From Candidatus Parachristensenella avicola (lineage in GTDB: Bacteria > Bacillota > Clostridia > Christensenellales > UMGS416), in assembly GCA_904420205.1 (NCBI GenBank), contig CAJFUN010000024.1:23442-87441 (forward strand): DNA of 64,000 nt, given 5' to 3'. The notes beneath the pieces are model-generated. The model made no database searches and was not told the origin of the DNA. It saw nothing but the letters and a program-made list of their open reading frames with translations. Numbering within the stretch: position 1 is the first letter of the stretch; the number at the start of each line of letters is the position of its first letter. A program made the position numbers and the translations under genes. This document shows positions 697-60,464 of this stretch, in pieces.

Positions 697-725
697 TTGC
701 AAAAGCGCCGGACGGGTGCTATAAT
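697..725 (+). promoter_or_regulatory. sigma-A type promoter of the aro operon leader
   Basis: TTGCAA (697-702), a 17-nt spacer, then TATAAT (720-725), read directly from the sequence. Confidence 0.7.
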
Positions 726-749
726 AACTCCAACGTTTGGAGGTATCCG

Positions 750-878
750 ATGAACCGTATGCAGAACATCCAGTTTATGAGCTTTAGCTGCTACTTTTAC
801 TTTAGCAGCTTTTTTGGCGTTGCTTCCAATGATGCTCATGCGGGTGTTCGGCTGCCGGCCATTCGGGCTGCAGCATAG
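750..878 (+). CDS. putative Phe/Tyr-rich leader peptide (42 codons) of the aro operon attenuator
   Basis: GGAGG at 739-743 lies 6 nt upstream of ATG 750. The peptide is MNRMQNIQFMSFSCYFYFSSFFGVASNDAHAGVRLPAIRAAA, with stop TAG at 876-878. Codons 9-22 carry 6 Phe and 2 Tyr. It is too short for the supplied ORF track. Confidence 0.6.
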   Translation: MNRMQNIQFMSFSCYFYFSSFFGVASNDAHAGVRLPAIRAAA

Positions 879-893
879 AGTCACAGGAATCAG

Positions 894-929
894 AGAGGAT
901 TCGCATGAAGCGGATCCTCTTTTTATTTT
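894..929 (+). terminator. intrinsic terminator (attenuator) between the leader ORF and aroF
   Basis: An 11-bp stem pairs 894-904 with 910-920 (AGAGGATTCGC / GCGGATCCTCT, one G-U pair) around the loop ATGAA. It is followed by TTTTTATTTT, and the aroF SD/ATG begins only 20 nt downstream. Confidence 0.75.
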
Positions 930-948
930 ACTCAAGGAGGGAATTGGA

Positions 949-1986
949 ATGATCGTAATTATGAAGCCCCAAGCGACGGCGCGGCAAACCGACGAGGTGA
1001 TGCAAATGCTGATTACCTCGGGTATGCAGGTGCAGATGAACCGGGGAACCCAGTGCACGGTGCTGGGCGTGCTGGGCGACACTACACAGGTGGATCCGGA
1101 TTCCATTGAGCTCTGCCCCGGCGTAGAGCGGGTTATGCGGGTACAGGAGCCCTATAAAAAGGCAAATCGCAAATTCCACCCGGAGAACAGCGTGATCGAG
1201 GTAGGCGGTGTGAAGGTCGGAGGAGAGGCGCTGGCGCTGATCGCGGGTCCCTGCTCGGTGGAAAATGAGGCGCAGATCTGCGGCATCGCAAAGGAAGTGC
1301 AGGCCTCGGGCGCCAATCTGCTGCGGGGCGGCGCCTTTAAGCCACGCACCTCGCCTTACGCCTTCCAGGGTATGGAGTGGGAGGGCCTTGAGCTGCTGGA
1401 CAAGGCCCGCGACCAAACCGGGATGCCCGTGGTCAGCGAGATGATGAATCCCCAGCATATGGAGCTTTTCTGCGATATGGTGGATGTGATCCAGATTGGC
1501 GCACGGAACATGCAGAATTTTGACCTGCTTAAGCAGGTGGGTCAGACCCGTAAGCCGGTGCTGCTCAAGCGTGGGCTCTCGGCTACGATCGAGGAGTGGC
1601 TGATGTCGGCTGAATACATTATGGCGGCGGGCAACCCAAATGTCATTCTCTGCGAGCGGGGTATTCGGACCTTTGAGACCTTCACCCGTAACACGTTGGA
1701 TCTTTCGGCTATCCCGGCGGTCAAGCGGCTGAGCCATCTGCCGGTGGTGGTGGATCCTTCCCATGCCAGCGGGATGAGCTGGATGGTGGAACCCCTGGCG
1801 CTGGCAGCCATTGCCGCCGGAGCTGACGGCCTTATCATCGAGGTGCACGATAATCCCGCCAAAGCCCTTTGCGACGGGCCGCAGTCGATTACGCCCGCCC
1901 AGTATGACGCGCTGGTCAAGAAGATCAGCGGCCTGGCCAGCCTGATGGGCCGCAAGGTGGAAGGAGGGCGCCATGCAAACGCTTGA
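949..1986 (+). CDS. aroF: 3-deoxy-7-phosphoheptulonate (DAHP) synthase, type I-beta with N-terminal ferredoxin-like/ACT-like regulatory domain
   Basis: AAGGAGGG at 933-940 precedes ATG 949. MIVIMKPQ...GVLGD...GPCSVE...LRGGAFKPRTSPYAFQG...KRG...CERGIRTFE...DPSH aligns with Thermotoga-type DAH7PS. The listed start at 814 would read through the terminator, so I rejected it. Confidence 0.9.
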   Translation: MIVIMKPQATARQTDEVMQMLITSGMQVQMNRGTQCTVLGVLGDTTQVDPDSIELCPGVERVMRVQEPYKKANRKFHPENSVIEVGGVKVGGEALALIAGPCSVENEAQICGIAKEVQASGANLLRGGAFKPRTSPYAFQGMEWEGLELLDKARDQTGMPVVSEMMNPQHMELFCDMVDVIQIGARNMQNFDLLKQVGQTRKPVLLKRGLSATIEEWLMSAEYIMAAGNPNVILCERGIRTFETFTRNTLDLSAIPAVKRLSHLPVVVDPSHASGMSWMVEPLALAAIAAGADGLIIEVHDNPAKALCDGPQSITPAQYDALVKKISGLASLMGRKVEGGRHANA

Positions 1987-3043
1987 GGTGAACGCTCCGA
2001 ACGGGCGCTATGCGATTTGGGCTAAAAGGGGGCTCCTGCAGGACATGGAGGCCTTCCTTCCCCTGCTGGAGGGAGGCGCGGCGGCGATTATCACCGACGA
2101 CACGGTGCGCGGACTTTATGGAGAGCGCCTCCGCGCTGCGTTGGAGGCTGCCGGCGTTCGGTGCATGCTTTTTTCCTTTCCAGCGGGAGAAGAGAGCAAA
2201 AACCACGCGACCCTCTGCGCAGCCTATGGGGCGCTGATGGAGCAGGGCATGACCCGGAAGGATACCATCATCGCCCTGGGCGGCGGCGTGGTGGGCGACC
2301 TGGCGGGCTTTACCGCCGCCACGCTGCTTCGAGGCGTCCCCTTTATCCAAGTCCCTACGACGCTGCTGGCTCAGGTGGACTCCTCGGTGGGCGGTAAGGT
2401 CGCGGTGGATATTCCGGCCGGCAAGAATTTGGTGGGCGCTTTTTACCAGCCGCGCCGCGTCCTGATTGATCCGGATACCCTAACCACCTTACCGCAGCGG
2501 CAGCTAGCCTGCGGGATAGGCGAGATGATCAAGCACGGGGCCATTGCCAGCCGCACCCTGTGGGACGAGATGGCCGGCATGCCCAAGGCGGCGCTTTTGC
2601 AGCGTGCAGATGAACTCGTGATAGAGAATTGCCGCATTAAGGCCGGCTATGTGGAGGCCGATCCGCTGGATAAGGGCCTACGCATGACCCTGAACTTCGG
2701 ACATACCTTGGGCCACGCGTTGGAAAAGCAGATGGGCTATGGGACGCTGACCCATGGCGAGGCGGTAGCCATGGGTATGGAAGCCATGACCCGCTGGGGG
2801 GAAGCATGGGGCATGACGGAACCTGGCACCCATGCAGCGATGGTGTCCATGCTTCAAAAGTGGGGGCTGCCGGATCATGCGCCGGAGGATGCGGCTGAAA
2901 TATTGCTGCGTGAAGCGAGCTATGACAAAAAGGCCGCCGGCAGCCGAATCACGTTGGTCGCGCTGAAAAGGCTGGGCGAAGCCGTGCTGCTTCCCCTGGA
3001 GCGCGAGGCGCTCCGCCAGCGGATGGAGGCGCTGATGGCATGA
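1973..3043 (+). CDS. aroB: 3-dehydroquinate synthase
   Basis: GGGVVGDLAGF, DSSVGGK and the NFGHTLGHALE motifs are present. The start overlaps the aroF stop, suggesting translational coupling. Confidence 0.9.
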   Translation: MQTLEVNAPNGRYAIWAKRGLLQDMEAFLPLLEGGAAAIITDDTVRGLYGERLRAALEAAGVRCMLFSFPAGEESKNHATLCAAYGALMEQGMTRKDTIIALGGGVVGDLAGFTAATLLRGVPFIQVPTTLLAQVDSSVGGKVAVDIPAGKNLVGAFYQPRRVLIDPDTLTTLPQRQLACGIGEMIKHGAIASRTLWDEMAGMPKAALLQRADELVIENCRIKAGYVEADPLDKGLRMTLNFGHTLGHALEKQMGYGTLTHGEAVAMGMEAMTRWGEAWGMTEPGTHAAMVSMLQKWGLPDHAPEDAAEILLREASYDKKAAGSRITLVALKRLGEAVLLPLEREALRQRMEALMA

Positions 3044-4290
3044 GCCGCGCTGTTACCGTAAAGCCCGCCAGTTTTGCCGGCACAGTGCAAGCGGTGCCTT
3101 CCAAATCGGATGCCCACCGCGCGCTGATTGCCGCCGCCCTGGCTGGCGGAGAATGCCGCCTGAGCGACTGGGGCGACAGCGACGACGTGCGGGCCACGCT
3201 TCAAGCCCTGGAGGCGCTGGGCTTGATCCGGACACGATCAGGCTTCTCCCTTTCCGGAGGGGGATCCATGCGCTCGGATGTGACGATTTCCTGCGGGCAA
3301 TCGGGCTCCACGCTGCGCTTTTTGATCCCGCTGACCCTGGTGCTGGGCGAGGGCGCTCGATTTACCGGGGAAGGGCGGTTGATGCAGCGCCCGCTATCGG
3401 TATATGAGCGGCTCTTTGCGCGGCAGGGCGTGGATTGGAGGCTGAAGGGCGACCAGCTTACCGTATCCGGCCGGCTGGCCGCTGGACGGTATGAGCTGCC
3501 CGGCGATGTATCCAGCCAGTTCGTGACCGGATTATGCTTTGCGCTGCCGTTGCTGGAAAAGGATTCTCAGATCGACTTTACGAGCCCGCTGGAATCGGGC
3601 GGATACGTTGGCATGACGCTGGAGACGCTTCGGCGCTTTGGCATCAAGATCCATGAACGGGCGAACGGCCTGGATATCCCCGGTGGGCAGCGGTATCATC
3701 CCGCCGTTTACGCCATAGAAGGCGATTGGTCCTATGGGGCTTTCTGGCTGGCGGCGGGCGCCATGGGCGGAGATGTAACCGTGCGCGGGCTGAAAAGCCC
3801 CAGCCGGCAGGGGGATAGCCGGGTATCGGCGATTCTTCAGGAGATGGGCGCTACGATCGCCCAATCGGGAGATACGGTGCGGGCATGCGGAAATACGCTG
3901 CGGGGAGCAGAGATTTCGCTGGCCGACGTGCCCGACCTGGCGCCGGTATTGGCCGTGGCCGCCTGCGCAGCCCATGGCCGCAGCCGGTTTACCCATGCCC
4001 GCCGCTTGCGGATCAAAGAGAGCGATCGGCTGGCGGCCATCGGCCGCATGGTGACGGACCTGGGCGGGCGGATTGAACTTGGAGAAGATGAATTTATCAT
4101 TGAAGGCGTTGGCAGGCTGAAAGGCGGCGTGGTAGAGACGCAGCACGACCACCGTATGGCCATGGCGGAGGCGGTGGCCGCGGGGATCGCCGAGGGGCCC
4201 GTTTATCTGGACGATCGGGACTGCGTCGCCAAATCGGCGCCTCCTTTCTGGGACCACTATAAAGCGCTGGGAGGCAGATGGGATGAGTAA
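3040..4290 (+). CDS. aroA: 3-phosphoshikimate 1-carboxyvinyltransferase (EPSP synthase)
   Basis: The PSKSDAHRALI, GQSGSTLRFL, LAVAA and RIKESDRL motifs are present, plus a 4-nt overlap with aroB. Confidence 0.9.
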   Translation: MSRAVTVKPASFAGTVQAVPSKSDAHRALIAAALAGGECRLSDWGDSDDVRATLQALEALGLIRTRSGFSLSGGGSMRSDVTISCGQSGSTLRFLIPLTLVLGEGARFTGEGRLMQRPLSVYERLFARQGVDWRLKGDQLTVSGRLAAGRYELPGDVSSQFVTGLCFALPLLEKDSQIDFTSPLESGGYVGMTLETLRRFGIKIHERANGLDIPGGQRYHPAVYAIEGDWSYGAFWLAAGAMGGDVTVRGLKSPSRQGDSRVSAILQEMGATIAQSGDTVRACGNTLRGAEISLADVPDLAPVLAVAACAAHGRSRFTHARRLRIKESDRLAAIGRMVTDLGGRIELGEDEFIIEGVGRLKGGVVETQHDHRMAMAEAVAAGIAEGPVYLDDRDCVAKSAPPFWDHYKALGGRWDE

Positions 4291-5374
4291 AAGCTGGGGA
4301 TATCATATGGAGGTGAGCCTGTTCGGGGAATCCCATGGCCCGGCCATCGGGGTGGTAATTTCGGGCTTGCCCGCAGGCTTGAGGCTGGATGACGCGGCCA
4401 TTGCGGCTCAGATGGCGCGGCGCGCGCCCGGAGCCGCCGATTGGTCGACGCCCAGGCGGGAGGCGGATGCGGTCAAGATTCTATCCGGCGCCTATCGGGG
4501 GCGGACGACCGGAACGCCACTGTGTGCGATCATTGAGAATACCAATACCTACAGCAACCATTACCAGGGGCTGGATCAGACGCCGCGTCCAGGCCATGCC
4601 GACTATACCGGTTCGGTCAAGTATCGCGGCTATGCCGACCCGCGAGGCGGCGGGCACTTTTCCGGAAGGCTCACCGCGCCGCTGACCTTTGCCGGAGCCA
4701 TCGCGCGGCTTTACTTGCAGGAGAAAGGCATCGATGTGGCAGGACACATATGCCAGGTGGGCGAATGCCGGGATATGCCGGTCGATTTGGCAGAACCGGA
4801 TATGCGGGCGATGCATGACGCTGCCGTGGGCTTCCCCGCCCTTTTGCCGGAGGCCCGCGAGGCGATGGCGGAAGCGATTCGGGCGGCACGGGCAGAGGGA
4901 GATTCTCTGGGCGGCGCGGTGGAGGTCTTTGCTACCGGGGTGCCGGCTGGCTTGGGCGATCCCATCTTTTCCGGGTTTGAGAGCCATTTCGCCAGCCTGT
5001 GTTATGGGATTCCTGCAGTAAAGGCCGTGGAGTTCGGCGCGGGGCCGGATTTCGCTTATCTGCGGGGCAGTCAGGCGAATGATTGCTTTTGCTGGCGAGC
5101 GGGCAAAATTGCTACGGAAACCAACCACACGGGCGGCGTCAACGGGGGAATCACTAACGGCATGCCATTGGCGGTGCGGGTTGCCTTCCGTCCCACGCCC
5201 TCCATCAGCCGTGAACAGGAAACGGTCAACCTTGAGGGCGGAGCGGTTCGCCTGGCGATCAAGGGCCGGCATGACCCTTGTATCGTACCCAGGGCCCTGC
5301 CGGTGGTCGAGGCGGCCCTGGCGCTGACCATTATGGACTTTATGCTGGAGGATGCGAGCGATGCAATTGGATGA
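4283..5374 (+). CDS. aroC: chorismate synthase
   Basis: The FGESHGPAIG, RPGHADY and GGGHFSGR motifs are present. The gene overlaps the aroA stop. Confidence 0.9.
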   Translation: MSKSWGYHMEVSLFGESHGPAIGVVISGLPAGLRLDDAAIAAQMARRAPGAADWSTPRREADAVKILSGAYRGRTTGTPLCAIIENTNTYSNHYQGLDQTPRPGHADYTGSVKYRGYADPRGGGHFSGRLTAPLTFAGAIARLYLQEKGIDVAGHICQVGECRDMPVDLAEPDMRAMHDAAVGFPALLPEAREAMAEAIRAARAEGDSLGGAVEVFATGVPAGLGDPIFSGFESHFASLCYGIPAVKAVEFGAGPDFAYLRGSQANDCFCWRAGKIATETNHTGGVNGGITNGMPLAVRVAFRPTPSISREQETVNLEGGAVRLAIKGRHDPCIVPRALPVVEAALALTIMDFMLEDASDAIG

Positions 5375-6464
5375 GATCCGTTTAGCCTTAGATGCGCTGG
5401 ACACGGAGCTGATCGCTTTGTTCGAGCGGCGGATGGAGCTGAGCCTGGAAGTCGCTAAGGCAAAGAAACGGGATAATTTGCCCATTTATCAGCCCGAACG
5501 GGAAAAAGCGGTGCTGGACAGCCGGGCGGCCAAGCTGAAAGATCCCTGCTGGGCGGCAGCTACCCGCCGCCTGATGCAGACGATTATGGATCTGGGCAAA
5601 GATGCGCAAATGGATTATTTAGCCCAGCTGCGCCCGATCCCTGTCGTCGCCTATCAGGGTGTGCCGGGCGGATATGGTGAGCAGGCTGCTTTGGAGCATT
5701 TCGGGACTGCCCAGTGGAAGGCCTGCGAAACCTTTGGCGCAGTGGTGCACGCGGTGCAGGCGGGCGAGGCCGACTACGGCGTGCTGCCGCTGGAAAATTC
5801 AGTGACGGGGCCGGTGGTGCAGCCTATGGATCTGCTGGCGGCCTCGGGACTCTCCATCGTAGGCGAGCGCTCGCTTCCCATCCGCCATTGCCTCGTGGGC
5901 GTTGATGGCGCTCAGGAGGAGGAGATCCGCCAGGTGGTGTCCCATGAGCAGGGCCTAGCTCAATGCAGCCAATATTTGGAATCCCACCCCGCGATGGCGG
6001 TTTCGTCCCGCAGGAACACGGCTGAAGCCGCGCGCTTTGTGGCCCAAAATGGCGACCCTACCTGTGCAGCCATTGCCTCCAGCCGGGCGGCTGAGCTCTA
6101 CGGCCTCTCGATCCTCCGGCGGGATATCCAGAACGACCGGGGAAACACGACGCGGTTTGTGATGATTGCGCGCAAGCGCTGCTCGAGCGGCAGCAAAACC
6201 TCGGTATATTTTGTGATCCGCAACGTTTCCGGTTCGCTTCAGGCGGCGCTGGAGGCGTTGGCCCGGCATGGTATTAACCTGATCGCCCTGCATACCCGCC
6301 CCATTCCCAGGGAGAAGTGGAGCTATGGATTTTTTGCCGATCTGTCCGGCGGGATGGATCAGCCGCATCTGGCTGCCGCGTTGGAGGATTTAAGCCGGCA
6401 ATGCCAGCAGATGACGGTGCTGGGCAGCTATCAGCCGGATCCGGAGGATGAACATGAGCGCTAA
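5352..6464 (+). CDS. pheA: bifunctional chorismate mutase / prephenate dehydratase (P-protein) with C-terminal ACT domain
   Basis: An N-terminal CM helix region (LDEIRLALDALDTELIALFERRMELS) is followed by PDT (VAYQGVPGGYGEQAA...NTTRF) and an ACT-like tail. Confidence 0.85.
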   Translation: MRAMQLDEIRLALDALDTELIALFERRMELSLEVAKAKKRDNLPIYQPEREKAVLDSRAAKLKDPCWAAATRRLMQTIMDLGKDAQMDYLAQLRPIPVVAYQGVPGGYGEQAALEHFGTAQWKACETFGAVVHAVQAGEADYGVLPLENSVTGPVVQPMDLLAASGLSIVGERSLPIRHCLVGVDGAQEEEIRQVVSHEQGLAQCSQYLESHPAMAVSSRRNTAEAARFVAQNGDPTCAAIASSRAAELYGLSILRRDIQNDRGNTTRFVMIARKRCSSGSKTSVYFVIRNVSGSLQAALEALARHGINLIALHTRPIPREKWSYGFFADLSGGMDQPHLAAALEDLSRQCQQMTVLGSYQPDPEDEHER

Positions 6465-6960
6465 TCTTTATTTGGTAGGCTATATGGGCGCGGGCAAAAG
6501 CACGGTGGGCGCGGCGGCTGCCAGACTGCTGGGCCGCGAATTTATCGACCTGGATCAGGTGATCGAAGCGCGGGAAGGCTGCGGCATACCGGCGATTTTT
6601 GAGCGGCAGGGGGAAGGCGGATTTCGCCTCTGCGAGCAAAAGGCCTTGCGCGCTGTTGCGGAATCTGGCGCGGTGGTTGCAACCGGAGGCGGAATCCTGA
6701 CCTATCCCGGCAACCGGGAAGCGATGGAAAAAAGCGGTGTGATTGTCTTTTTGGACAGGCCCTTGGAATCCATTTTGGCCGATCTGGATACTTCGGCGCG
6801 CCCCATGGCGGCAGGCGGACGAGAGCGGATCGTCAATCTATACCGTCAGCGAGAAGACCAGTATCGCAAGGCGGCGCAGCATCGCGTCGCCAATGCGGGC
6901 ACGCTGGAAGACGCGGCGGCGGCGGTCGCGGCTTTGGCGAGAGAGGTGTTGTTATGGTAA
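6448..6960 (+). CDS. aroK: shikimate kinase
   Basis: The P-loop YLVGYMGAGKSTVG, a size of about 170 aa, and its position in the operon. Confidence 0.85.
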   Translation: MNMSANLYLVGYMGAGKSTVGAAAARLLGREFIDLDQVIEAREGCGIPAIFERQGEGGFRLCEQKALRAVAESGAVVATGGGILTYPGNREAMEKSGVIVFLDRPLESILADLDTSARPMAAGGRERIVNLYRQREDQYRKAAQHRVANAGTLEDAAAAVAALAREVLLW

Positions 6961-7820
6961 TCGCTTCGCTTCTGGCGGTGATTGGCGACCCCATCGCCCA
7001 CAGCCTTTCACCTATGATCCATCAAACCATTTACCAGCAGGAGGGGATTGACGCGGCATATCTGCCGGTGCGCGTGGAGCGAGGCGGGCTGCCCGCCTTC
7101 CTGCAGGCAGCGGATACCTTTTCGGTAAAAGGGTTTAACGCCACCATGCCCCATAAACAGGATATTTTGCCCTATCTGAAGGCTTTGGATCCGGAAGCGA
7201 AGCGATTCGGTTCGGCCAATACCTTAAAGCGGGTGGCAGGGGGCTACATGGGCTATACCACTGACGGGCCGGGATTGAAGCGGGCTCTGGAGGAGGAAGG
7301 CGTAAGCTTTTACGGAAGGCGCATCCTGATTATGGGCGCTGGCGGCGTGACGCCTACGGTGACGGTAACGGCCGCCTTGGCCGGCGCCCAGGCGATGACG
7401 ATTCTGAACCGGCATGCCGATAAAGCGCAGGCTGCGGCCGAGCTGACAACCCGGCTTTCGGGGCTTACGCCGCAGTGGGGCGCTATGGATGGCGCGCCCA
7501 GCGCCAGGCAGGCCCAAGGCTTTGATCTGGTCATCAATACGACGCCGCTGGGCATGGCGGGCTTTGATGATTTTACGAACTTTGACTTTCTGGACACCCT
7601 AGCGCCGAAGGCGGCGGTAGTGGACCTTATCTATCATCCCTTTGCCACGTCGCTTCTGAAGGCGGCGCAGGCTCGGGGGCTGCAGGCCGTGAACGGCCTG
7701 GGCATGCTGGCATGGCAGGCCTTTTTCGCGCATGAGATCTGGTTTGGTTCGCTGCCAAGCCCCCAGACGCGCCGAACTGTGCTGGAGCAGCTTCAGGCTG
7801 CGGCTAGCGGCTGCCGATAG
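6954..7820 (+). CDS. aroE: shikimate dehydrogenase
   Basis: The translation contains IGDPIAHSLSPMIH, NATMPHK, ANT, TDG and GAGG. The start overlaps the aroK stop. Confidence 0.85.
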   Translation: MVIASLLAVIGDPIAHSLSPMIHQTIYQQEGIDAAYLPVRVERGGLPAFLQAADTFSVKGFNATMPHKQDILPYLKALDPEAKRFGSANTLKRVAGGYMGYTTDGPGLKRALEEEGVSFYGRRILIMGAGGVTPTVTVTAALAGAQAMTILNRHADKAQAAAELTTRLSGLTPQWGAMDGAPSARQAQGFDLVINTTPLGMAGFDDFTNFDFLDTLAPKAAVVDLIYHPFATSLLKAAQARGLQAVNGLGMLAWQAFFAHEIWFGSLPSPQTRRTVLEQLQAAASGCR

Positions 7821-7846: not shown

Positions 7847-7890
7847 ACGGCCGCCCCGGATCGTCTGGCCGGACGATCCGGGGCGGCCGT
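7847..7890. terminator. long GC-rich hairpin between the convergent aroE and folT genes
   Basis: A 19-bp perfect stem pairs ACGGCCGCCCCGGATCGTC (7847-7865) with 7872-7890. The U-tracts are weak on both strands. Confidence 0.55.
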
Positions 7891-7905: not shown

Positions 7906-8565
7906 TCAGGCGCTCTTTCGGGAACTGAAAGCTTTCATGCGCCCCCAAAGGCCTTTCCAGCGGCTGACAAAAGCCAGCTGCTGGGCGGGAACCAGGCCGG
8001 ATTTCACGGCCACCGGCAGCAGGGCGCTGAGCAGCAGCGCCATTATGACCGTTTCCAACGGCAATAGAAGCAGGTTTTTAATCGCGCTGTTCGCTAGGTA
8101 GAAATAGTAGCCCTTCCCATAGAGCATGGCGCTCCAGACGGAGCCCAGCAAGATGTTAATCCATACGTTGACCGATAGCTTGCATAGGAAGATCCGCAAA
8201 AGAGAGAGCTTGGAACGGTAAAAGAAGAGGGCGTAAAACAAGGGCCCCAGCATGCTGGTGAGGGTGTAGCCGGGAAAGAATCCGCCGGAGGGATGAACGG
8301 CAAAACCGATAAGATCCGTCACAAGCCCATAGACCAGCGCCGTCAGCGGCCCGCCGATCCAGCCAGCTACCGTGCTGACGATGAAGCTGAAATAGATGCG
8401 TAAATTTTGCGCCACCGGGATATAGAAGCCGCTGACAACGATAGAAATCGCAACAAGGACGGCCATGAGCACAAGCACACGAATGTTTTTCAATTCTTCC
8501 GCCGCAGCCCGCCAATAAGCGCCGGAAAAAGGCGAGAGCAATGTTTTGCCTTGGTTTTTCGACAT
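7906..8565 (-). CDS. folT: ECF transporter S component, folate family
   Basis: A multi-TM protein of about 219 aa resembling the FolT-family S component. It lies directly downstream of a THF riboswitch. Confidence 0.7.
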   Translation of the reverse strand: MSKNQGKTLLSPFSGAYWRAAAEELKNIRVLVLMAVLVAISIVVSGFYIPVAQNLRIYFSFIVSTVAGWIGGPLTALVYGLVTDLIGFAVHPSGGFFPGYTLTSMLGPLFYALFFYRSKLSLLRIFLCKLSVNVWINILLGSVWSAMLYGKGYYFYLANSAIKNLLLLPLETVIMALLLSALLPVAVKSGLVPAQQLAFVSRWKGLWGRMKAFSSRKSA

Positions 8566-8671: not shown

Positions 8672-8780
8672 CAGTAACGGGATGCGAAATCTGCACCGCA
8701 AGCAGCCGACGGCTTCCTTTTCGTCCGCCTGACAACTCCCCGTTCAGGCGGCACTTAACGCGCAGAAATCTACTTTACTG
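8672..8780 (-). promoter_or_regulatory. THF (tetrahydrofolate, folT motif) riboswitch
   Basis: The minus-strand RNA is CAGUAAAGUAGAUUUCUGCGCGUUAAGUGCCGCCUGAACGGGGAGUUGUCAGGCGGACGAAAAGG...GCGGUGCAGAUUUCGCAUCCCGUUACUG. It shares the AGUAGAU...CGCGUUAAGUG...GAA.GGGA.GU.GUC...ACGAA...GCGGUG...GCAUCC blocks and the P1 pairing CAGUAA/UUACUG with the Eubacterium siraeum THF aptamer as I remember it. Confidence 0.85.
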
Positions 8781-22281: not shown

Positions 22282-24085
22282 ACGCCATGTGACGCCGCCA
22301 GCCAATATGGGCGGCGTAGGCCGGGCGGGCATGCGAGGCAGGCCGGTGGAGAAGCCTAAGGATCTCAAGGGCACTTTGGCACGGCTGTGGCGGCTGACCC
22401 AAGGCCACCGCAAGGGATTGGGCTGGATCCTGTTGCTTTCAGCGCTGACCTCCGCTTCAGCCATCCTTTCCCCGCTGGTGATCGGTGAGGCGGTCAATGC
22501 GATTGACGGCGGGCGTCCGGCGCAGCAGATCCTCGTGGTGCTGCTGGGGCTGTATCTGTGTGATTGGCTGGTCCGCTTCCTGCAGCAGTATTTTATGGCC
22601 TCCATTGGCCAGCGGATGATCCATTATATCCGGATTACCCTTTTTGGGGTGATGAAGCAGCTGCCGCTGTCCTTTTTTGACCGCCGCCAGCATGGTGAGC
22701 TGATGAGCCGGCTGACCAACGACGTGGATAACATCAGCAATACCCTTTCCAACTCGCTGACACAGCTGCTTACCTACTTTTTTACCATCATAGGCATCTT
22801 GATGATGATGCTCTCCTTAAACGTGCTGCTGACCTTGATTTCGCTGGCAGCGGTGGGCTTTATTTTCCTGCTTACCCGGATCATTACCCGGCGCACCCGC
22901 AAGATGTTCGCCGAGCAGCAGCGGATCTTGGGCAAGCTTAACGGACAGATTGAGGAGAGCATCTCCGGACTGAATGTGGTCAAAGCCTTCTGTCAGGAAG
23001 AGCAGATGGTGCGGCAATTCGATGAAAGCAATGAGGCGTTGCGGCGGGTGGCTACGCGGGCGCTGATTTGGTCCGGCTACCTAATGCCCATTACCAACGT
23101 AATTAATAACTTTAACTTTGTTTTTATCTCCATCTTCAGCGGCATTTTTGCTGTGAAGGGCTGGATCTCCATCGGCATGATTTCGAGCTTTCTGCTCTAT
23201 GCCCGACAGTTCTCCCGGCCCTTTGTGGAGATTGCGAATATTTATAACAATTTCCAGACGGCCGTTGCCGGGGCGGAGCGTATCTTTGAAATATTGGACG
23301 AACAGCCGGAGCCGGAGGACGCGCCGGATGCAATACCGCTGGCGTCGCCCAAGGGCGATATCACGCTGGATCATGTAACCTTCGGCTATTCCCCGGATCA
23401 TCCGATTCTGAAAGACGTTTCAATCGAGATCCCCGCCGGGACCAAGGCGGCTATTGTAGGCCCCACCGGCGCCGGTAAAACGACGATCATCAACCTGCTC
23501 ACCCGCTTTTATGACGTAAACAGAGGCAGTATCCGGCTGGATGGGCATGACTTGCGGGATTATCAGCTGCAGCAGCTGCGGCAGTGCTTCGGCGTGGTGC
23601 TGCAGGATACAGCGCTCTTTGCCGTATCAGTGCGGGACAATATTCGTTATGGCCGGGAGCGGGCGACTCAGGCCCAGGTGGAGGAGGCGGCGCGAATTGC
23701 TGGAGCCGACGCCTTTATCCGCCGCTTGCCCGACGGCTATAATACGGTATTAACCCAAGGGGGCGCGGAACTGAGCCAGGGGGAACGGCAATTGTTAACC
23801 ATTGCCCGTGCTGTGCTGGTGGACGCGCCGATCTTGATTCTGGACGAGGCGACAAGCTCGGTGGATACGGTGACCGAGCAAAAGATTCGCCGGGCGATGC
23901 TGAAAATCACCGAGGGACGCACGTCTTTTATCATTGCGCACCGCCTTTCAACCATCCGCGATTCGGACATTATCCTTTTAATTGAGGGCGGAAGGATTGC
24001 AGAGCAGGGTACCCATGAATCGCTGATGGAGCAAAACGGTCTTTACGCCTCGATGTACCGCACCCAGATGGGCGGATATGAATGA
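22274..24085 (+). CDS. ABC transporter ATP-binding protein/permease (heterodimer partner)
   Basis: The start was moved to ATG 22274 (GGGGGTGG upstream, ATGA-type overlap with the preceding stop). Walker A GPTGAGKTT, signature LSQGERQ and Walker B LILDEATS are present. Confidence 0.85.
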   Translation: MNERHVTPPANMGGVGRAGMRGRPVEKPKDLKGTLARLWRLTQGHRKGLGWILLLSALTSASAILSPLVIGEAVNAIDGGRPAQQILVVLLGLYLCDWLVRFLQQYFMASIGQRMIHYIRITLFGVMKQLPLSFFDRRQHGELMSRLTNDVDNISNTLSNSLTQLLTYFFTIIGILMMMLSLNVLLTLISLAAVGFIFLLTRIITRRTRKMFAEQQRILGKLNGQIEESISGLNVVKAFCQEEQMVRQFDESNEALRRVATRALIWSGYLMPITNVINNFNFVFISIFSGIFAVKGWISIGMISSFLLYARQFSRPFVEIANIYNNFQTAVAGAERIFEILDEQPEPEDAPDAIPLASPKGDITLDHVTFGYSPDHPILKDVSIEIPAGTKAAIVGPTGAGKTTIINLLTRFYDVNRGSIRLDGHDLRDYQLQQLRQCFGVVLQDTALFAVSVRDNIRYGRERATQAQVEEAARIAGADAFIRRLPDGYNTVLTQGGAELSQGERQLLTIARAVLVDAPILILDEATSSVDTVTEQKIRRAMLKITEGRTSFIIAHRLSTIRDSDIILLIEGGRIAEQGTHESLMEQNGLYASMYRTQMGGYE

Positions 24086-52840: not shown

Positions 52841-53055
52841 AGCGGAAAATAGGTCTGTGGTTGAAAGTCGAAGCCAGTCGCGGGCAAAACGATCCACGTA
52901 AGCCGGACAAAGTCCGGTGAGCATGGCGCGGTTTAGAAGTAAGTCCAGCCAGGAACAACTGAGAGAGGGACGCGTGAGGGGAATGCACCCCAAGCAAAAC
53001 CTCCAGCTGGCGGGTGTGGGGTCAAAGACCAGGTCAGCTGTTTTCCGCTTTTTCT
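52841..53055 (+). ncRNA. candidate structured ncRNA; raiA-motif RNA is the leading hypothesis. Alternatives are a 6S-like RNA or a long cis-regulatory leader of the pfkB-family gene.
   Basis: The region has its own consensus promoter and no credible ORF. The 5' end AGCGGAAAA (52841-52849) is perfectly complementary to UUUUCCGCU (53041-53049), closing a domain of about 210 nt. Internal hairpins are CCGGAC-AAA-GUCCGG (52903-52917) and GGGG-AAUGCA-CCCC (52978-52991). A strong terminator follows. The position immediately 3' of comFC matches the reported raiA-motif context. Confidence 0.5.
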
Positions 53056-56920: not shown

Positions 56921-57180
56921 ACTTCCCCAAAGCAAAGGCATGGATGGAGACGGGAAGGCCAATGTGCGTCCAAAGAGAGCCGGTGTTTGGTGTAAACCGG
57001 TGGCGTAGGGCCCAATCCTATCGCTCCTGAGCTGAAGCCCAGAAGGATGAGTAAGGGCTTCCGGGTGGTCCCGATACAGGCCAGGGGCGTGTATGCGCCC
57101 TGATGAGCGGCCGTTTTACGGCAAGATGGGTGGTACCGCGAGCAATAAACCTCGTCCCAGTAGGGACGGGGTTTTTATTT
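56921..57180 (+). promoter_or_regulatory. T-box riboswitch (tRNA-sensing leader), probable Ile specifier
   Basis: The Stem I AG bulge AGAGAG (56973-56978) and a distal loop ..UGGUGUAAA.. are present. A specifier-loop candidate CAAUCCUAUCG lies at 57013-57023. A Stem II AGUA element (GAGUAAGGGC) is also present. The canonical T-box sequence AAGAUGGGUGGUACCGCGAG lies at 57123-57142. The terminator pairs 57150-57158 with 57163-57171 and is followed by UUUUUAUUUU. An alternative antiterminator pairs CGAG/CUCG and GGG/CCC. Confidence 0.85.
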
Positions 57181-57211: not shown

Positions 57212-58864
57212 ATGAATCTGCTGTCGCGCTTTGTTACCCGGGTAGAATATGAAAACCAAGAGGATTTTGAGAAGCATTACCAGATCCTGGTGCCGGAGAA
57301 GTTCAATTATGGATTCGACGTGGTGGACGAAATGGCGCGGCTCGCGCCCGAACAGAAGGCGTTGGTATGGACCAACCCCCAGGGAGAGGAGCGGATCTAT
57401 AATTTTGCCCAGATGAAGGAGGGGTCCGACCGCGCGGCCAACTACCTGCGCGGGCTGGGGATTCAAAAGGGCGACAAGGTAATGCTGATCTTGAAGCGCC
57501 ACTATGAATACTGGTTCATCCTGGTAGCGCTGCATAAGCTGGGCGCGGTGGCGATTCCTGCCACTCACCTGCTGACGGAGAAGGATATTTCCTACCGGGC
57601 CAATGCGGCAGAGGTTAAGATGATCATCTGCACCTCGGAGGGCGAGGTGGCTCAGCACGTAGAGGCGGCCATGCCCAAATCGCCTACGGTGGAAAAGCTG
57701 GTGATCGTGCGCGGCAGTGAGCGTCCGGGATGGTTCAACTTTCATGAAGGCTGGGAGGCGGCTTCCCCCAACCTGGAGCGCAGGCCCGAGGATGATACCA
57801 CAAGCGACGATATGATGCTGCTGTACTTTACTTCGGGCACCACAGGTATGCCCAAGATGGTGGGCCATGCTACCGCATATGCGCTGGGTCATATCACGAC
57901 CGCCAAATACTGGCATAATAATCTGGACGGTGGACTGCACTTTACCATTTCCGATACCGGATGGGGCAAGGCAGCTTGGGGTAAGATTTATGGCCAGTGG
58001 CTGGCGGGTACCGCGGTTATGGTATACGATTTCGATAAATTTGTACCCGCCGAAATCCTTCATATCATGGAAAAATACGGCGTAACGACCTTCTGCGCGC
58101 CGCCCACCATGTATCGTTTTATGATTCGCGAAGATTTGAGCAAGATCGATTTCTCTAAGCTGACCTATTGCTGTACGGCTGGAGAGGCCCTGAACCCTGA
58201 GGTGCATCACCAGTGGAAGCGGGCTACAGGCATGGCCATTCACGAAGGATATGGCCAGACAGAGACGACGCTCACCGTATTCAGTTCTATCTATGACACG
58301 CCGGTACCGGGATCCATGGGACGCACCAGCCCGGCTTATGACATGGACGTGGTGGATGAGGACGGTGTGCACTGCGAGGCGGGCCAGGTTGGCGAAATCG
58401 TCGTGCGTACCGACCGGCGTCTGCCGGCGGGCCTCTTCCTGGGCTACTATCGCAACGAGAAGCTGACCCAGGAGGCCTGGCATGACGGGCTTTATCATAC
58501 CGGCGACACGGCTTGGCGGGACGCCGACGGCCTCTTATGGTATGTAGGCCGCACTGACGACATCATTAAGACATCCGGGTACCGCGTAGGACCCTTTGAG
58601 GTGGAAAGCGCCCTGATGGAGCATCCGGCTGTGCTGGAGACGGCGATCACCGGCGTGCCTGATCCCATCCGTGGGCAGGTCATCAAGGCGACCATCGTGC
58701 TCAACAAGGGATACGAGCCGTCCGATGCGCTGGCCAAGGAGCTGCAGGATCATGTCAAGCGCACTACGGCTCCCTATAAATACCCCAGGGTTGTAGAGTT
58801 TATCGATGAAATGCCTAAGACCATTTCGGGAAAGATTCGCCGCGTGGAGCTGAGAAATCGCTAA
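57212..58864 (+). CDS. AMP-forming acyl-CoA synthetase, medium-chain (ACSM/MacS-like) family
   Basis: AAGGAGGA lies 7 nt before the ATG. The N-terminus (PEKFNYGFDVVDEMA...ALVW) resembles ACSM-type ligases. The AMP-binding motifs YFTSGTTGMPK, GYGQTE, YHTGD and SGKIRR are present. Confidence 0.8.
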   Translation: MNLLSRFVTRVEYENQEDFEKHYQILVPEKFNYGFDVVDEMARLAPEQKALVWTNPQGEERIYNFAQMKEGSDRAANYLRGLGIQKGDKVMLILKRHYEYWFILVALHKLGAVAIPATHLLTEKDISYRANAAEVKMIICTSEGEVAQHVEAAMPKSPTVEKLVIVRGSERPGWFNFHEGWEAASPNLERRPEDDTTSDDMMLLYFTSGTTGMPKMVGHATAYALGHITTAKYWHNNLDGGLHFTISDTGWGKAAWGKIYGQWLAGTAVMVYDFDKFVPAEILHIMEKYGVTTFCAPPTMYRFMIREDLSKIDFSKLTYCCTAGEALNPEVHHQWKRATGMAIHEGYGQTETTLTVFSSIYDTPVPGSMGRTSPAYDMDVVDEDGVHCEAGQVGEIVVRTDRRLPAGLFLGYYRNEKLTQEAWHDGLYHTGDTAWRDADGLLWYVGRTDDIIKTSGYRVGPFEVESALMEHPAVLETAITGVPDPIRGQVIKATIVLNKGYEPSDALAKELQDHVKRTTAPYKYPRVVEFIDEMPKTISGKIRRVELRNR

Positions 58865-58874
58865 GGAGTCGAAT

Positions 58875-60464
58875 ATGGCAACCATCGAAGTGTTGGATTC
58901 TACCTTGCGGGACGGGGCGCAGGCCCCGGGAATTAGCTATTCCCTTCAGGATAAGCTGAAGGTGATAGGGCTTCTTGACCGCTTAGGGGTGGATCTGATC
59001 GAAGCAGGCAATCCCGCCTCCAATCCAAAGGATGCGGAACTTTACCGCCGGGCGGAGAGCCTTCGGCTAAAGCGCGCGCGTCTGGCGGCCTTTGGCATGA
59101 CGTGCCGCGCTGGGACAGCGCCTCAGGAAGATCCTGCGATGGCGGCGCTTTTAGCGGCGGATACAGGCGTGGTCGTGCTGGTGGGGAAAGCCTCCGCCGA
59201 CCAGGTGCGCCGCGTGCTGCAGACGGACTTACAGGAAAACCTGCGCATGATTGAACAAAGCTGCCGGTATCTGGCGGATCGGGGGCGGTCGGTGATTTTC
59301 GACGCCGAGCACTTCTTCGACGCCTGGTCCGACGATCCTAAATATGCCGAAGCAGCCCTGCGGGCGGCGCTGGCGGGCGGCGCACGCTGCCTTTGCCTGT
59401 GCGATACCCGAGGCGGTGCGCTGCCGGATGAGATCACGCAGGCGGTTTCGGCCGTCCGGCGGGATTTCCCCGGCTGCACCCTCGGTATTCACACCCATGA
59501 CGACGGCGGGCTGGCGGTAGCGAATACCCTTCAGGCGGTTCGGGCCGGAGCTGATCATGTGCAGGGGACGCTGCTGGGCTATGGCGAGCGCTGTGGGAAC
59601 GCAAACCTTGCCTCGGTGCTGGCCAATCTTATATTGAAAATGGATCTGCAGGCCCTACAGGGACAGGGGCTGGGATCGCTTACGTCTATTTGCCGCCAGG
59701 TGGCGGACCTGGCCAATAAGCGCCTGCCGGATACCCAGCCCTTTGTGGGATCGGCCGCCTTTTCCCATAAGGCGGGACTACATATCGACGGCGTGCTGAA
59801 AGACCGCGAAAGCTTTGAGCATATTCCGCCCGAGGCCGTGGGAAACCGGCGGCACTTTGTGGTCAGCGAGGTGGCCGGCCGCAGCCTGATGGCCCGGCGG
59901 CTGGGAGAAGATTATACCAAGGACAGCCCGGAAGTGGCCGATATGCTGGCCCAGGTGAAAGAAAAAGAGGGCCAGGGCTACCAATATGAAAACGCCCAGG
60001 GCAGCTTCGAGCTGATGGCTGCCCGGGTGCTGGGGCGTTACCAATCCTTCTTTACCTTGAAGCAGTTTTCGATCCTGACCCAGCGGGGCAAGGGCGGCGA
60101 GCAGGCAACGCATGCCACTGCAATGATTAAAATTGAGGTGAATGGGCGCAGCGAGATTACCGCAGCGGAGGGAAATGGGCCTGTGGACGCCCTGAACCGC
60201 GCGCTGCAAAAAGCGCTTCGGGTTTTTTACCCGGCCATCGACAGCGTCCGCCTGACCGACTATAAAGTCCGCGTGATTGATTCGGAAGCAGGAGCGGCTG
60301 CTTCGGTTCGGGTATTGATTGAATTTACCGATGGCCGGGAAATCTGGAACACGGTCGGCGTGTCGACCGACGTCATTGAGGCATCCTGGCTGGCCCTGGT
60401 GGATGGGGCAGAGGTCGCCCTGATGCATTGGGGCGCAGGAAAAGCATTGCCGACGGACGCATAG
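58875..60464 (+). CDS. cimA: citramalate synthase (LeuA-related, CimA type)
   Basis: IEVLDSTLRDGAQ, HTHDD.G.A.AN and a C-terminal LeuA-dimer regulatory domain are present, in a protein of about 529 aa. It lies 10 nt after the ligase gene and has its own AAGGAG. Confidence 0.8.
   Translation: MATIEVLDSTLRDGAQAPGISYSLQDKLKVIGLLDRLGVDLIEAGNPASNPKDAELYRRAESLRLKRARLAAFGMTCRAGTAPQEDPAMAALLAADTGVVVLVGKASADQVRRVLQTDLQENLRMIEQSCRYLADRGRSVIFDAEHFFDAWSDDPKYAEAALRAALAGGARCLCLCDTRGGALPDEITQAVSAVRRDFPGCTLGIHTHDDGGLAVANTLQAVRAGADHVQGTLLGYGERCGNANLASVLANLILKMDLQALQGQGLGSLTSICRQVADLANKRLPDTQPFVGSAAFSHKAGLHIDGVLKDRESFEHIPPEAVGNRRHFVVSEVAGRSLMARRLGEDYTKDSPEVADMLAQVKEKEGQGYQYENAQGSFELMAARVLGRYQSFFTLKQFSILTQRGKGGEQATHATAMIKIEVNGRSEITAAEGNGPVDALNRALQKALRVFYPAIDSVRLTDYKVRVIDSEAGAAASVRVLIEFTDGREIWNTVGVSTDVIEASWLALVDGAEVALMHWGAGKALPTDA

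Follow-up and report, generated by a model that had tools for sequence, protein, structure and literature searches.

Stav et al. 2019 (PMC6429828; BMC Microbiol 19:66, supplement) described an "aromatic amino acid attenuator" named uORF-13, found from Clostridium novyi NT. The motif has 336 unique examples, about half of them upstream of aroF, in Bacillales, Clostridiales, Thermoanaerobacterales, Negativicutes and metagenomes. It combines a short open reading frame (ORF) with a terminator and with a hairpin, named P1, whose loop holds F-Y-F codons; it was read as a trp-like attenuator. The same study reported uORF-12, with 1258 examples that are mostly at transporters, and held the aroR peptide and its RNA structure to be distinct from both motifs. 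In Corynebacterium glutamicum, the aroR-aroF leader contains Phe-Tyr-Phe, and read-through was shown experimentally to rise under Phe limitation (Neshat et al. 2014, as described in PMC11802643). A further motif, uORFC-13-1, lies upstream of aroF in Acholeplasma and environmental sequences (24 examples; Brewer et al. 2021, PMC8632094). Here, we analysed a 64,000-nucleotide (nt) stretch of DNA from Candidatus Parachristensenella avicola (contig CAJFUN010000024.1, positions 23,442 to 87,441), hereafter the window. We focused on the region upstream of aroF at 697–948. Judged from its sequence, this is very probably a classical ribosome-mediated leader-peptide transcription attenuator of a seven-gene shikimate/phenylalanine operon.

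An earlier sequence-only reading of the window considered a peptide attenuator on an aro operon to be unusual in Firmicutes. That view did not hold, since uORF-13 and uORFC-13-1 are published. RNA-seq by Fuchs et al. 2021 also showed transcription ending prematurely in the aroF 5' untranslated region of C. difficile, without a known riboregulator. Our literature search found no direct experimental test of such attenuators in Firmicutes, and no later paper mentioning uORF-13 was found in the literature searched.

All leader and operon features described below are on the plus strand. The leader begins with a predicted sigma-70-type promoter at 697–725. This comprises a −35 element (TTGCAA, 697–702), a 17-nt spacer and an extended −10 element (TGcTATAAT, 717–725). 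The promoter scan recorded 10 of 12 matches and placed the TG at 717–718, an addition to the TTGCAA-17-TATAAT promoter already noted. A Shine–Dalgarno (SD) sequence, GGAGG, follows at 739–743. It lies 6 nt before an ATG at 750, and its duplex with the anti-SD sequence has a free energy of −10.7 kcal/mol. The leader ORF occupies 750–878 and has 42 codons (MNRMQNIQFMSFSCYFYFSSFFGVASNDAHAGVRLPAIRAAA), with the stop at 876–878. Gene callers called this ORF on a Logan contig with an identical leader (L164). Related short ORFs were called in Maliibacterium massiliense and in a further relative (L163). We also noted a weak and perhaps incidental 5-bp hairpin at 737–750 (+; UUGGA/UCCGA) that could sequester the leader SD and start codon.

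Phe and Tyr codons cluster in codons 9–22 of the leader (774–815). The 14 codons include 6 for Phe, all UUU, and 2 for Tyr (UAC). At 8 of 14, this run alone ranks first for aromatic content among about 87,600 stop-free 14-codon windows in all six frames of the 64 kb. The share of aromatic residues is 19% in the leader versus 5.6% in the operon proteins. Every part that the sequence-only reading had listed in 697–948, the SD, ATG and aromatic ORF included, was found again at the same coordinates.

We next consider the RNA. The leader transcript (732–935) folds at −72.9 kcal/mol (z −3.9), and none of 200 shuffled sequences was equally stable. The unconstrained fold contains a long 1:2 helix, the P1 hairpin nested within it, a small hairpin at 851–874 and the terminator. 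In the 1:2 helix of this minimum free energy structure, segment 1 (764–782), the 5' strand of the anti-antiterminator, pairs with segment 2 (834–849). The 16 bp enclose the aromatic run. The duplex has a free energy of −19.5 kcal/mol and was equalled by 7 of 500 dinucleotide shuffles of the partner region. Segment 2 is the switch strand, since its partner can be either segment 1 or segment 3 (895–911), which spans the terminator loop and its 5' arm. Pairing of segments 2 and 3 forms an antiterminator of 15 bp with one bulged A (−18.4 to −20.1 kcal/mol). At −18.4 kcal/mol, the 2:3 duplex was equalled by 5 of 500 such shuffles. Both the antiterminator and the anti-antiterminator had been proposed from the sequence; each proved longer than proposed and better than chance.

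The P1 hairpin (786–816) pairs 786–793 with 803–810, as the sequence-only reading had it. Its loop, 794–802 (CUUUUACUU), consists of codons F16-Y17-F18 (UUU-UAC-UUU), and a tract of six uridines (U6) follows at 811–816. By its anatomy, P1 with U6 is probably an RNA polymerase pause element. The small hairpin (851–860 with 866–874) lies inside the antiterminator and covers the last leader codons before the stop. The intrinsic terminator (892–929) has a 13-bp stem (892–904/910–922) with a 5-nt loop, and the stem is followed by UUUUAUUUU, where a U4AU4 tract runs to 929. Its free energy is −20.3 kcal/mol, with a z of −4.2 against shuffles (terminator scan and RNAfold). The aroF SD lies about 15 nt past the stem and 7 nt past the U-tract. 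Hence, the terminator that had been proposed is present, but its stem is 13 bp and not 11, and the spacing to the aroF SD is 15 or 7 nt and not 20.

Folding with and without a mask over the translated region had been suggested as a check. The unmasked leader gave the 1:2 helix together with the terminator. With the mask in place, and with the transcript ended at 911 so that the 3' arm of the terminator was not yet made, the RNA instead formed the antiterminator (834–849/895–911) around the 851–874 hairpin.

These folds suggest how the leader may work. Translation of the ORF, ribosome stalling, polymerase pausing and the direction of the response are read from the anatomy of the element and from the trp, his and phe paradigm. 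Briefly, transcription would start about 7 nt past the −10 box, near 732. A ribosome would load at the GGAGG and ATG 750 and translate the 42-codon leader. P1 and U6 would probably hold the polymerase until this ribosome arrives, like the 1:2 pause hairpin of E. coli trp. If charged tRNA-Phe or tRNA-Tyr were scarce, the ribosome would stall in 774–815, among the six UUU and two UAC codons. It would then sit within the loop closed by 1:2, melting P1 and blocking the 1:2 helix. The freed segment 2 could capture 895–911 once that sequence is made. This would use up the terminator's 5' arm and loop, and RNA polymerase would read through into aroF. Conversely, with ample Phe and Tyr, the ribosome would reach the stop codon at 876–878. 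Its footprint (about 861–890) would fall inside the 2:3 loop (850–894), and segment 2 could re-pair with segment 1 behind the ribosome. The terminator (892–922) and its U-tract would form, and transcription would end near 925–930. The operon is most likely turned on by a shortage of Phe or Tyr.

To place the leader among its relatives, we compared 160 loci encoding AroF proteins 59–75% identical to that of the window (one truncated metagenome match aside). The loci came from species-representative genomes and metagenomes, and the taxa include Christensenellales, Oscillospiraceae, Flavonifractor, Monoglobus, Ructibacterium, Clostridium, Sedimentibacter and Pelosinus. Scanning metagenomes for nearer AroF relatives returned none above 68%; relatives at 98–100% and 76–77% identity came from the protein database. 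In 157 loci we recorded the best ORF-embedded count of F, Y and W per 12 codons in the 350 nt upstream of aroF. At least five such residues occurred on the forward strand at 116 of 157 loci (74%), compared with 13 of 157 on the reverse strand (8%) and 124 of 785 shuffles (16%). For at least six residues the corresponding counts were 66 of 157, 2 of 157 and 31 of 785. Hence, a search upstream of aroF orthologs, as the sequence-only reading had advised, finds a short ORF with clustered aromatic codons at most of the 157 loci.

The usual layout comprises an ATG with an SD, 21–50 codons, a stop about 90–140 nt before aroF, and a hairpin with a U-tract about 25–60 nt before aroF. The peptides fall into subfamilies (...LTTASFLFSFGWARFMGAGFFGMGK; ...AEYFYFSxSFYFSFGYF; ...YYFFYFCFSFFGYGYF; ...FYYFSLGYYYFSGAG) that have the aromatic core alone in common. 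By this survey, predicted leader-peptide control of aroF is the norm in the sampled gut and environmental Clostridia, at about three quarters of the 157 loci. Some loci differ. One with a 72% identical AroF (L165, 446–600) is without an aromatic leader ORF and has a G+C-rich, structured 155-nt spacer with no obvious U-tract. The group L141–L159 is without a clear aromatic leader ORF and has a weak candidate far upstream only.

We also assessed antiterminator potential across the family. This was defined as the best duplex that the region past the aromatic run could form with the terminator loop and 5' arm. For 79 unique loci the mean z was −1.95, and 49% of loci were below −2. In leaders of the FYFSFGYF type, about 10 nt separate the end of segment 2 from the leader stop; this is the classical site for masking by a terminating ribosome.

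Closer relatives allow a comparison position by position. The leader is identical on the Logan contig L164. On a Joint Genome Institute (JGI) contig with a 98% identical AroF (L161), there are 12 substitutions in 690–951, and segments 1, 2 and 3 as well as P1 are free of them. Two of the changes (864 and 865) are in the 851–874 hairpin, in the loop only, and G913A improves a terminator pair, converting G-U to A-U. The promoter −35 and −10 elements are kept on this contig. They are also kept in two relatives with 75–76% identical AroF proteins (L001, 2285–2490, and L163), together with the SD, P1 and the long helix enclosing P1, although the sequence of the helix is different. The nearest named relative is M. 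massiliense (Clostridia, Maliibacteriaceae), an isolated organism with a complete genome; its AroF is 77% identical. The leader peptide is MVNLSTQFYFSFGCYYFYGSFFGLGKTGDRGCHAMAC, and the RNA has a matching nested design of P1, enclosing helix and 1:2 pairing. Its antiterminator (1346–1360/1417–1430) is formed around a small hairpin and its terminator has 14 bp. With the shared GCGGG/UUCGC core as anchor, the window and M. massiliense differ on both sides of five antiterminator pairs. The sequence elements, their better-than-chance complementarity, and the conservation and covariation in relatives are direct results.

The same comparisons bear on whether the peptide itself is the product. The 42 residues could be a functional small hydrophobic protein, in which case the hairpin would be its own terminator and aroF would be expressed by read-through or from another promoter. 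The SD is strong, automatic pipelines call the ORF as a gene and a good intrinsic terminator follows it. However, conservation is limited to the aromatic run, while the length (21–50 residues) and the rest of the peptide vary freely. Two non-synonymous changes are already present in the leader tail of L161. The ORF is always linked to aroF, and there is no second promoter between the terminator and aroF, where the U-tract and start codon are 19 nt apart. Complementarity between the 3' part of the ORF and the terminator is enriched, which a stand-alone gene would not need. We consider this explanation extremely unlikely.

At most loci, part of the aromatic run is in a hairpin loop and a U-rich tail follows. 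We aligned 28 P1 regions with MAFFT (alignment A1). All internal gaps in A1 are multiples of three. Among the leaders, Phe and Tyr replace each other at the aromatic columns. In A1, 83.5% of cells are paired at P1, versus 23–46% when the partner is slid; as the regions were picked for containing a hairpin, the paired percentage is inflated, but compensatory changes at aligned columns are not. Ten of 11 pairs are changed on both sides and 0 of 500 shuffles reach any of the measures.

Codon usage in the leaders is biased. For 83 unique leader ORFs (L001–L160), UUU:UUC is 381:77, compared with 291:439 in aroF. Similarly, UAU:UAC is 190:87 in leaders versus 189:274 in the adjacent aroF. At G+C-rich loci (>52%), UUU:UUC is 200:48 in leaders and 107:321 in aroF, a Phe odds ratio of 12.5. 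The UUU bias is position-specific, being fixed in the P1 loop and in the post-P1 tract. The GW[AT]RF subfamily prefers UUC at its first aromatic column (14 of 22).

The RNA of the GW[AT]RF subfamily (alignment A3, 25 loci, e.g. L017:2328–2385) has an invariant GGCUGGNCYCGAUUUA...CCGGCU followed by UUUUUU or UAUUUU, and the invariance takes in a CGA Arg codon as well as third codon positions. These leaders always contain a Trp codon, so codons for Phe, Tyr and Trp occur together. The outer helix in A3 shows no variation at all, which leaves covariation uninformative for it. Covariation is seen between position 16 and position 30 or 31. An excess of substitutions at third codon positions is absent in this subfamily (0.34/0.37/0.33). 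Hence, the argument for coding rests on the ATG and SD, the in-frame gaps, F/Y interchange and closure of the ORF.

An alternative explanation is that the short ORF is not translated for regulation. Instead, a structured RNA (a riboswitch, or a protein- or tRNA-binding element) would sense an aromatic metabolite or uncharged tRNA, with the UUU and UAC of the P1 loop as a recognition site resembling a T-box specifier. Nucleotide-level conservation of P1 and its tail, third codon positions included, fits this explanation. So do the use of UUU far above that in aroF of the same genomes and the missing third-position excess in GW[AT]RF leaders. Conversely, an ATG and SD occur at nearly all loci and the ORF is always closed before the terminator. 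Gaps at P1 keep the reading frame, F/Y swaps keep an aromatic codon, and leader sequence outside the aromatic run varies freely. Known RNA classes were also sought. With Rfam 15 we obtained no relevant match for the leader, either over the window at the gathering threshold or in 600–1050 even at E ≤ 10; Ocean-VII and HOXA11-AS1 were the only matches there, both attributable to chance. T-box leaders and riboswitches were among the families not matched in this region, and the same scan detected a true T-box elsewhere in the window. Proteobacterial Phe_leader, Trp_leader and other Rfam leader families were likewise not reported at E ≤ 10. A scan of 20 related loci found no known Rfam family upstream of aroF. 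Finally, no TRAP-type array was found, as 726–948 has no run of at least three (G/U)AG triplets spaced 2–3 nt apart. We judge a structured-RNA sensor to be unlikely.

P1 might also act on its own account. With U6 (786–816), it could be a translation-dependent intrinsic terminator inside the leader ORF that exerts most of the control, leaving the distal terminator constitutive or secondary. The stem has 8 bp and contains G+C, U6 follows directly, stem and U-rich tail are conserved family-wide, and UUU is fixed at tract positions even in G+C-rich genomes. However, P1 is weak (about −8 to −12 kcal/mol) and has a 9-nt loop, which places it outside the usual range of terminators, and it is absent from the terminator scan. 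The distal terminator has its own conserved antiterminator, which would be pointless if termination there were constitutive. Moreover, hairpins with a U-rich 3' flank have an established pause role in trp- and his-type leaders. Control mainly at P1 is therefore very unlikely.

A less exclusive role for P1 deserves mention, albeit tentatively. It is possible, though we would not favour it, that P1 and the fixed U-tract, which encodes FF or YF, form a distinct module. This would be a translation-gated pause or weak terminator within the leader ORF, so that the attenuator reads ribosome position twice, at P1 and then at 2:3/3:4. If so, the P1 checkpoint would read both whether a ribosome is engaged and whether it is stalled. 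UUU is fixed in a position-specific way even where genomes are rich in G+C, and this would then reflect a role at the RNA level and not codon choice. A two-checkpoint design has not been described for uORF-13.

Several observations weigh against attenuation by the leader peptide as drawn above. When the full transcript is folded with a ribosome mask, the terminator is still part of the thermodynamic optimum. Hence, read-through must be kinetic, with 2:3 forming before segment 4; such dependence is common to all attenuators of this type. The 1:2 pairing in M. massiliense is not significant by the duplex test. Nor is 1:2 pairing significant family-wide (mean z −0.3), and we claim it for the window only. 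No significant antiterminator was found in L001 and L163; either the switch is built differently there or the terminator call is wrong. The 157 loci are related, so the locus counts given above are not independent events. A surrogate covariance model for uORF-13, built from the 28 A1 loci with the window and L001 left out, has its best window match at 785–818, with a weak score of 16.1 bits (E 0.16 over 128 kb). A second match of the model, at 23117–23157, lies inside a 612-residue ORF and was dismissed as chance. Finally, the 6:0 preference for UUU in the window leader is not distinguishable from usage in the operon (45:22, p 0.17).

We nevertheless favour an attenuator because the pairings beat chance, the aromatic ORF is conserved at most of the 157 loci and the layout recurs in M. 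massiliense. A search for covarying pairings in relatives had been suggested by the sequence-only reading. Such pairings are seen for the antiterminator in M. massiliense, and antiterminator complementarity is enriched in the family; 1:2 falls short of significance family-wide. The mechanistic proposal of a Phe/Tyr-sensing attenuator of the aroF–aroE operon is well supported in silico and by comparison.

Downstream of the leader, an SD (GGAGG, 936–940) precedes the aroF ATG at 949. The operon comprises aroF (949–1986), aroB (1973–3043), aroA (3040–4290), aroC (4283–5374), pheA (chorismate mutase/prephenate dehydratase, 5352–6464), aroK (6448–6960) and aroE (6954–7820), all with NCBIfam matches, and ends at 7820. 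The terminator scan places a strong operon terminator at 7847–7890. This is a 20-bp bidirectional terminator common to the aro operon and a convergent folT-family unit. The latter consists of a folT-family energy-coupling factor (ECF) S-component gene (7906–8565, −) converging on the aro operon. It is preceded by a tetrahydrofolate (THF) riboswitch (8673–8779, −) and a promoter-like site (8814–8786). Upstream of the leader, the gene for the L-serine dehydratase alpha subunit ends at 694.

An in-frame TTG at 814 opens a 390-codon ORF (814–1986, +) in which aroF is stretched upstream through the attenuator. An over-extended aroF call of this kind (385 aa) is present in the public JGI contig L161 (237–1394). 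On other contigs the leader is annotated as a hypothetical protein of 34–42 aa. Recognition of the element is thus relevant to annotation, since gene callers either label the leader a hypothetical protein or extend aroF through the terminator.

The T-box detected in the window is at 56932–57162 (+; 101 bits). It lies before genes for an MbcS-like acyl-CoA synthetase (57212–58864) and citramalate synthase (58875–60464), a gene pair whose context is of the isoleucine type. Hence, this genome uses T-boxes for other amino-acid pathways and a leader peptide for the aromatic operon. A raiA RNA motif was also found at 52844–53046 (+; 181 bits).

How does the element compare with known systems? The proteobacterial paradigm is provided by E. 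coli pheL-pheA and trpL-trp. As in these, a short ORF with clustered regulatory codons is combined with 1:2, 2:3 and 3:4 pairings that exclude one another and with a terminator before the first gene. As with pheL-pheA, pheA is among the regulated genes. However, the window element has no sequence or covariance-model similarity to the E. coli leaders. The pheL leader has 15 codons, compared with 42 here, and the window leader uses mixed Phe and Tyr codons. Control would extend to the whole common pathway and not to a single terminal-branch gene. In addition, the regulatory codons are in and around a separate nested P1, not in segment 1 only, and a ribosome at the stop codon would be inside the antiterminator loop, not on segment 2. 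Thus, the element works like the proteobacterial leaders in the predicted scheme but is not a member by sequence.

Other parallels are found nearer to aroF. By its description, the C. glutamicum aroR-aroF system also has a Phe-Tyr-Phe leader peptide ahead of an operon for DAHP synthase, although it belongs to another phylum. The uORFC-13-1 motif similarly has an upstream ORF with a promoter, a ribosome-binding site and U-rich Phe codons directly before an intrinsic terminator, and is upstream of aroF. It differs in being described as coding for at least one Phe and not for a long F/Y run, and in being confined to Acholeplasma and environmental sequences.

The element also resembles uORF-13. 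Both are found in Firmicutes, Clostridia among them, directly upstream of aroF, uORF-13 also preceding other shikimate genes, and both have a short ORF and then a terminator stem. The P1 loop of the window (794–802) encodes F16-Y17-F18, matching the F-Y-F codons of the motif. As the motif is not in Rfam, we compared the two by the published description, which the window element fits feature by feature. The host differs, being a relative of Maliibacterium. Furthermore, the published description consists of ORF, P1 and terminator only, whereas the window element adds an explicit 1:2/2:3 switch enclosing P1. Aromatic attenuators of Firmicutes have so far been a bioinformatic prediction in a supplement, absent from Rfam, and the window contributes an example with explicit 1:2, 2:3 and 3:4 pairings. 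Firmicutes are commonly held to depend on T-boxes and TRAP to control aromatic amino-acid genes, a view that is corrected here. As a predicted compact Phe/Tyr-responsive switch, the element may also be of practical interest. What remains of interest is the breadth of the family and the conserved module of P1 and U-tract, with its position-specific fixation of UUU. We conclude, from sequence comparison, that an element of this kind had already been predicted and that the window leader is a new, well-resolved example in a Maliibacterium-like organism.

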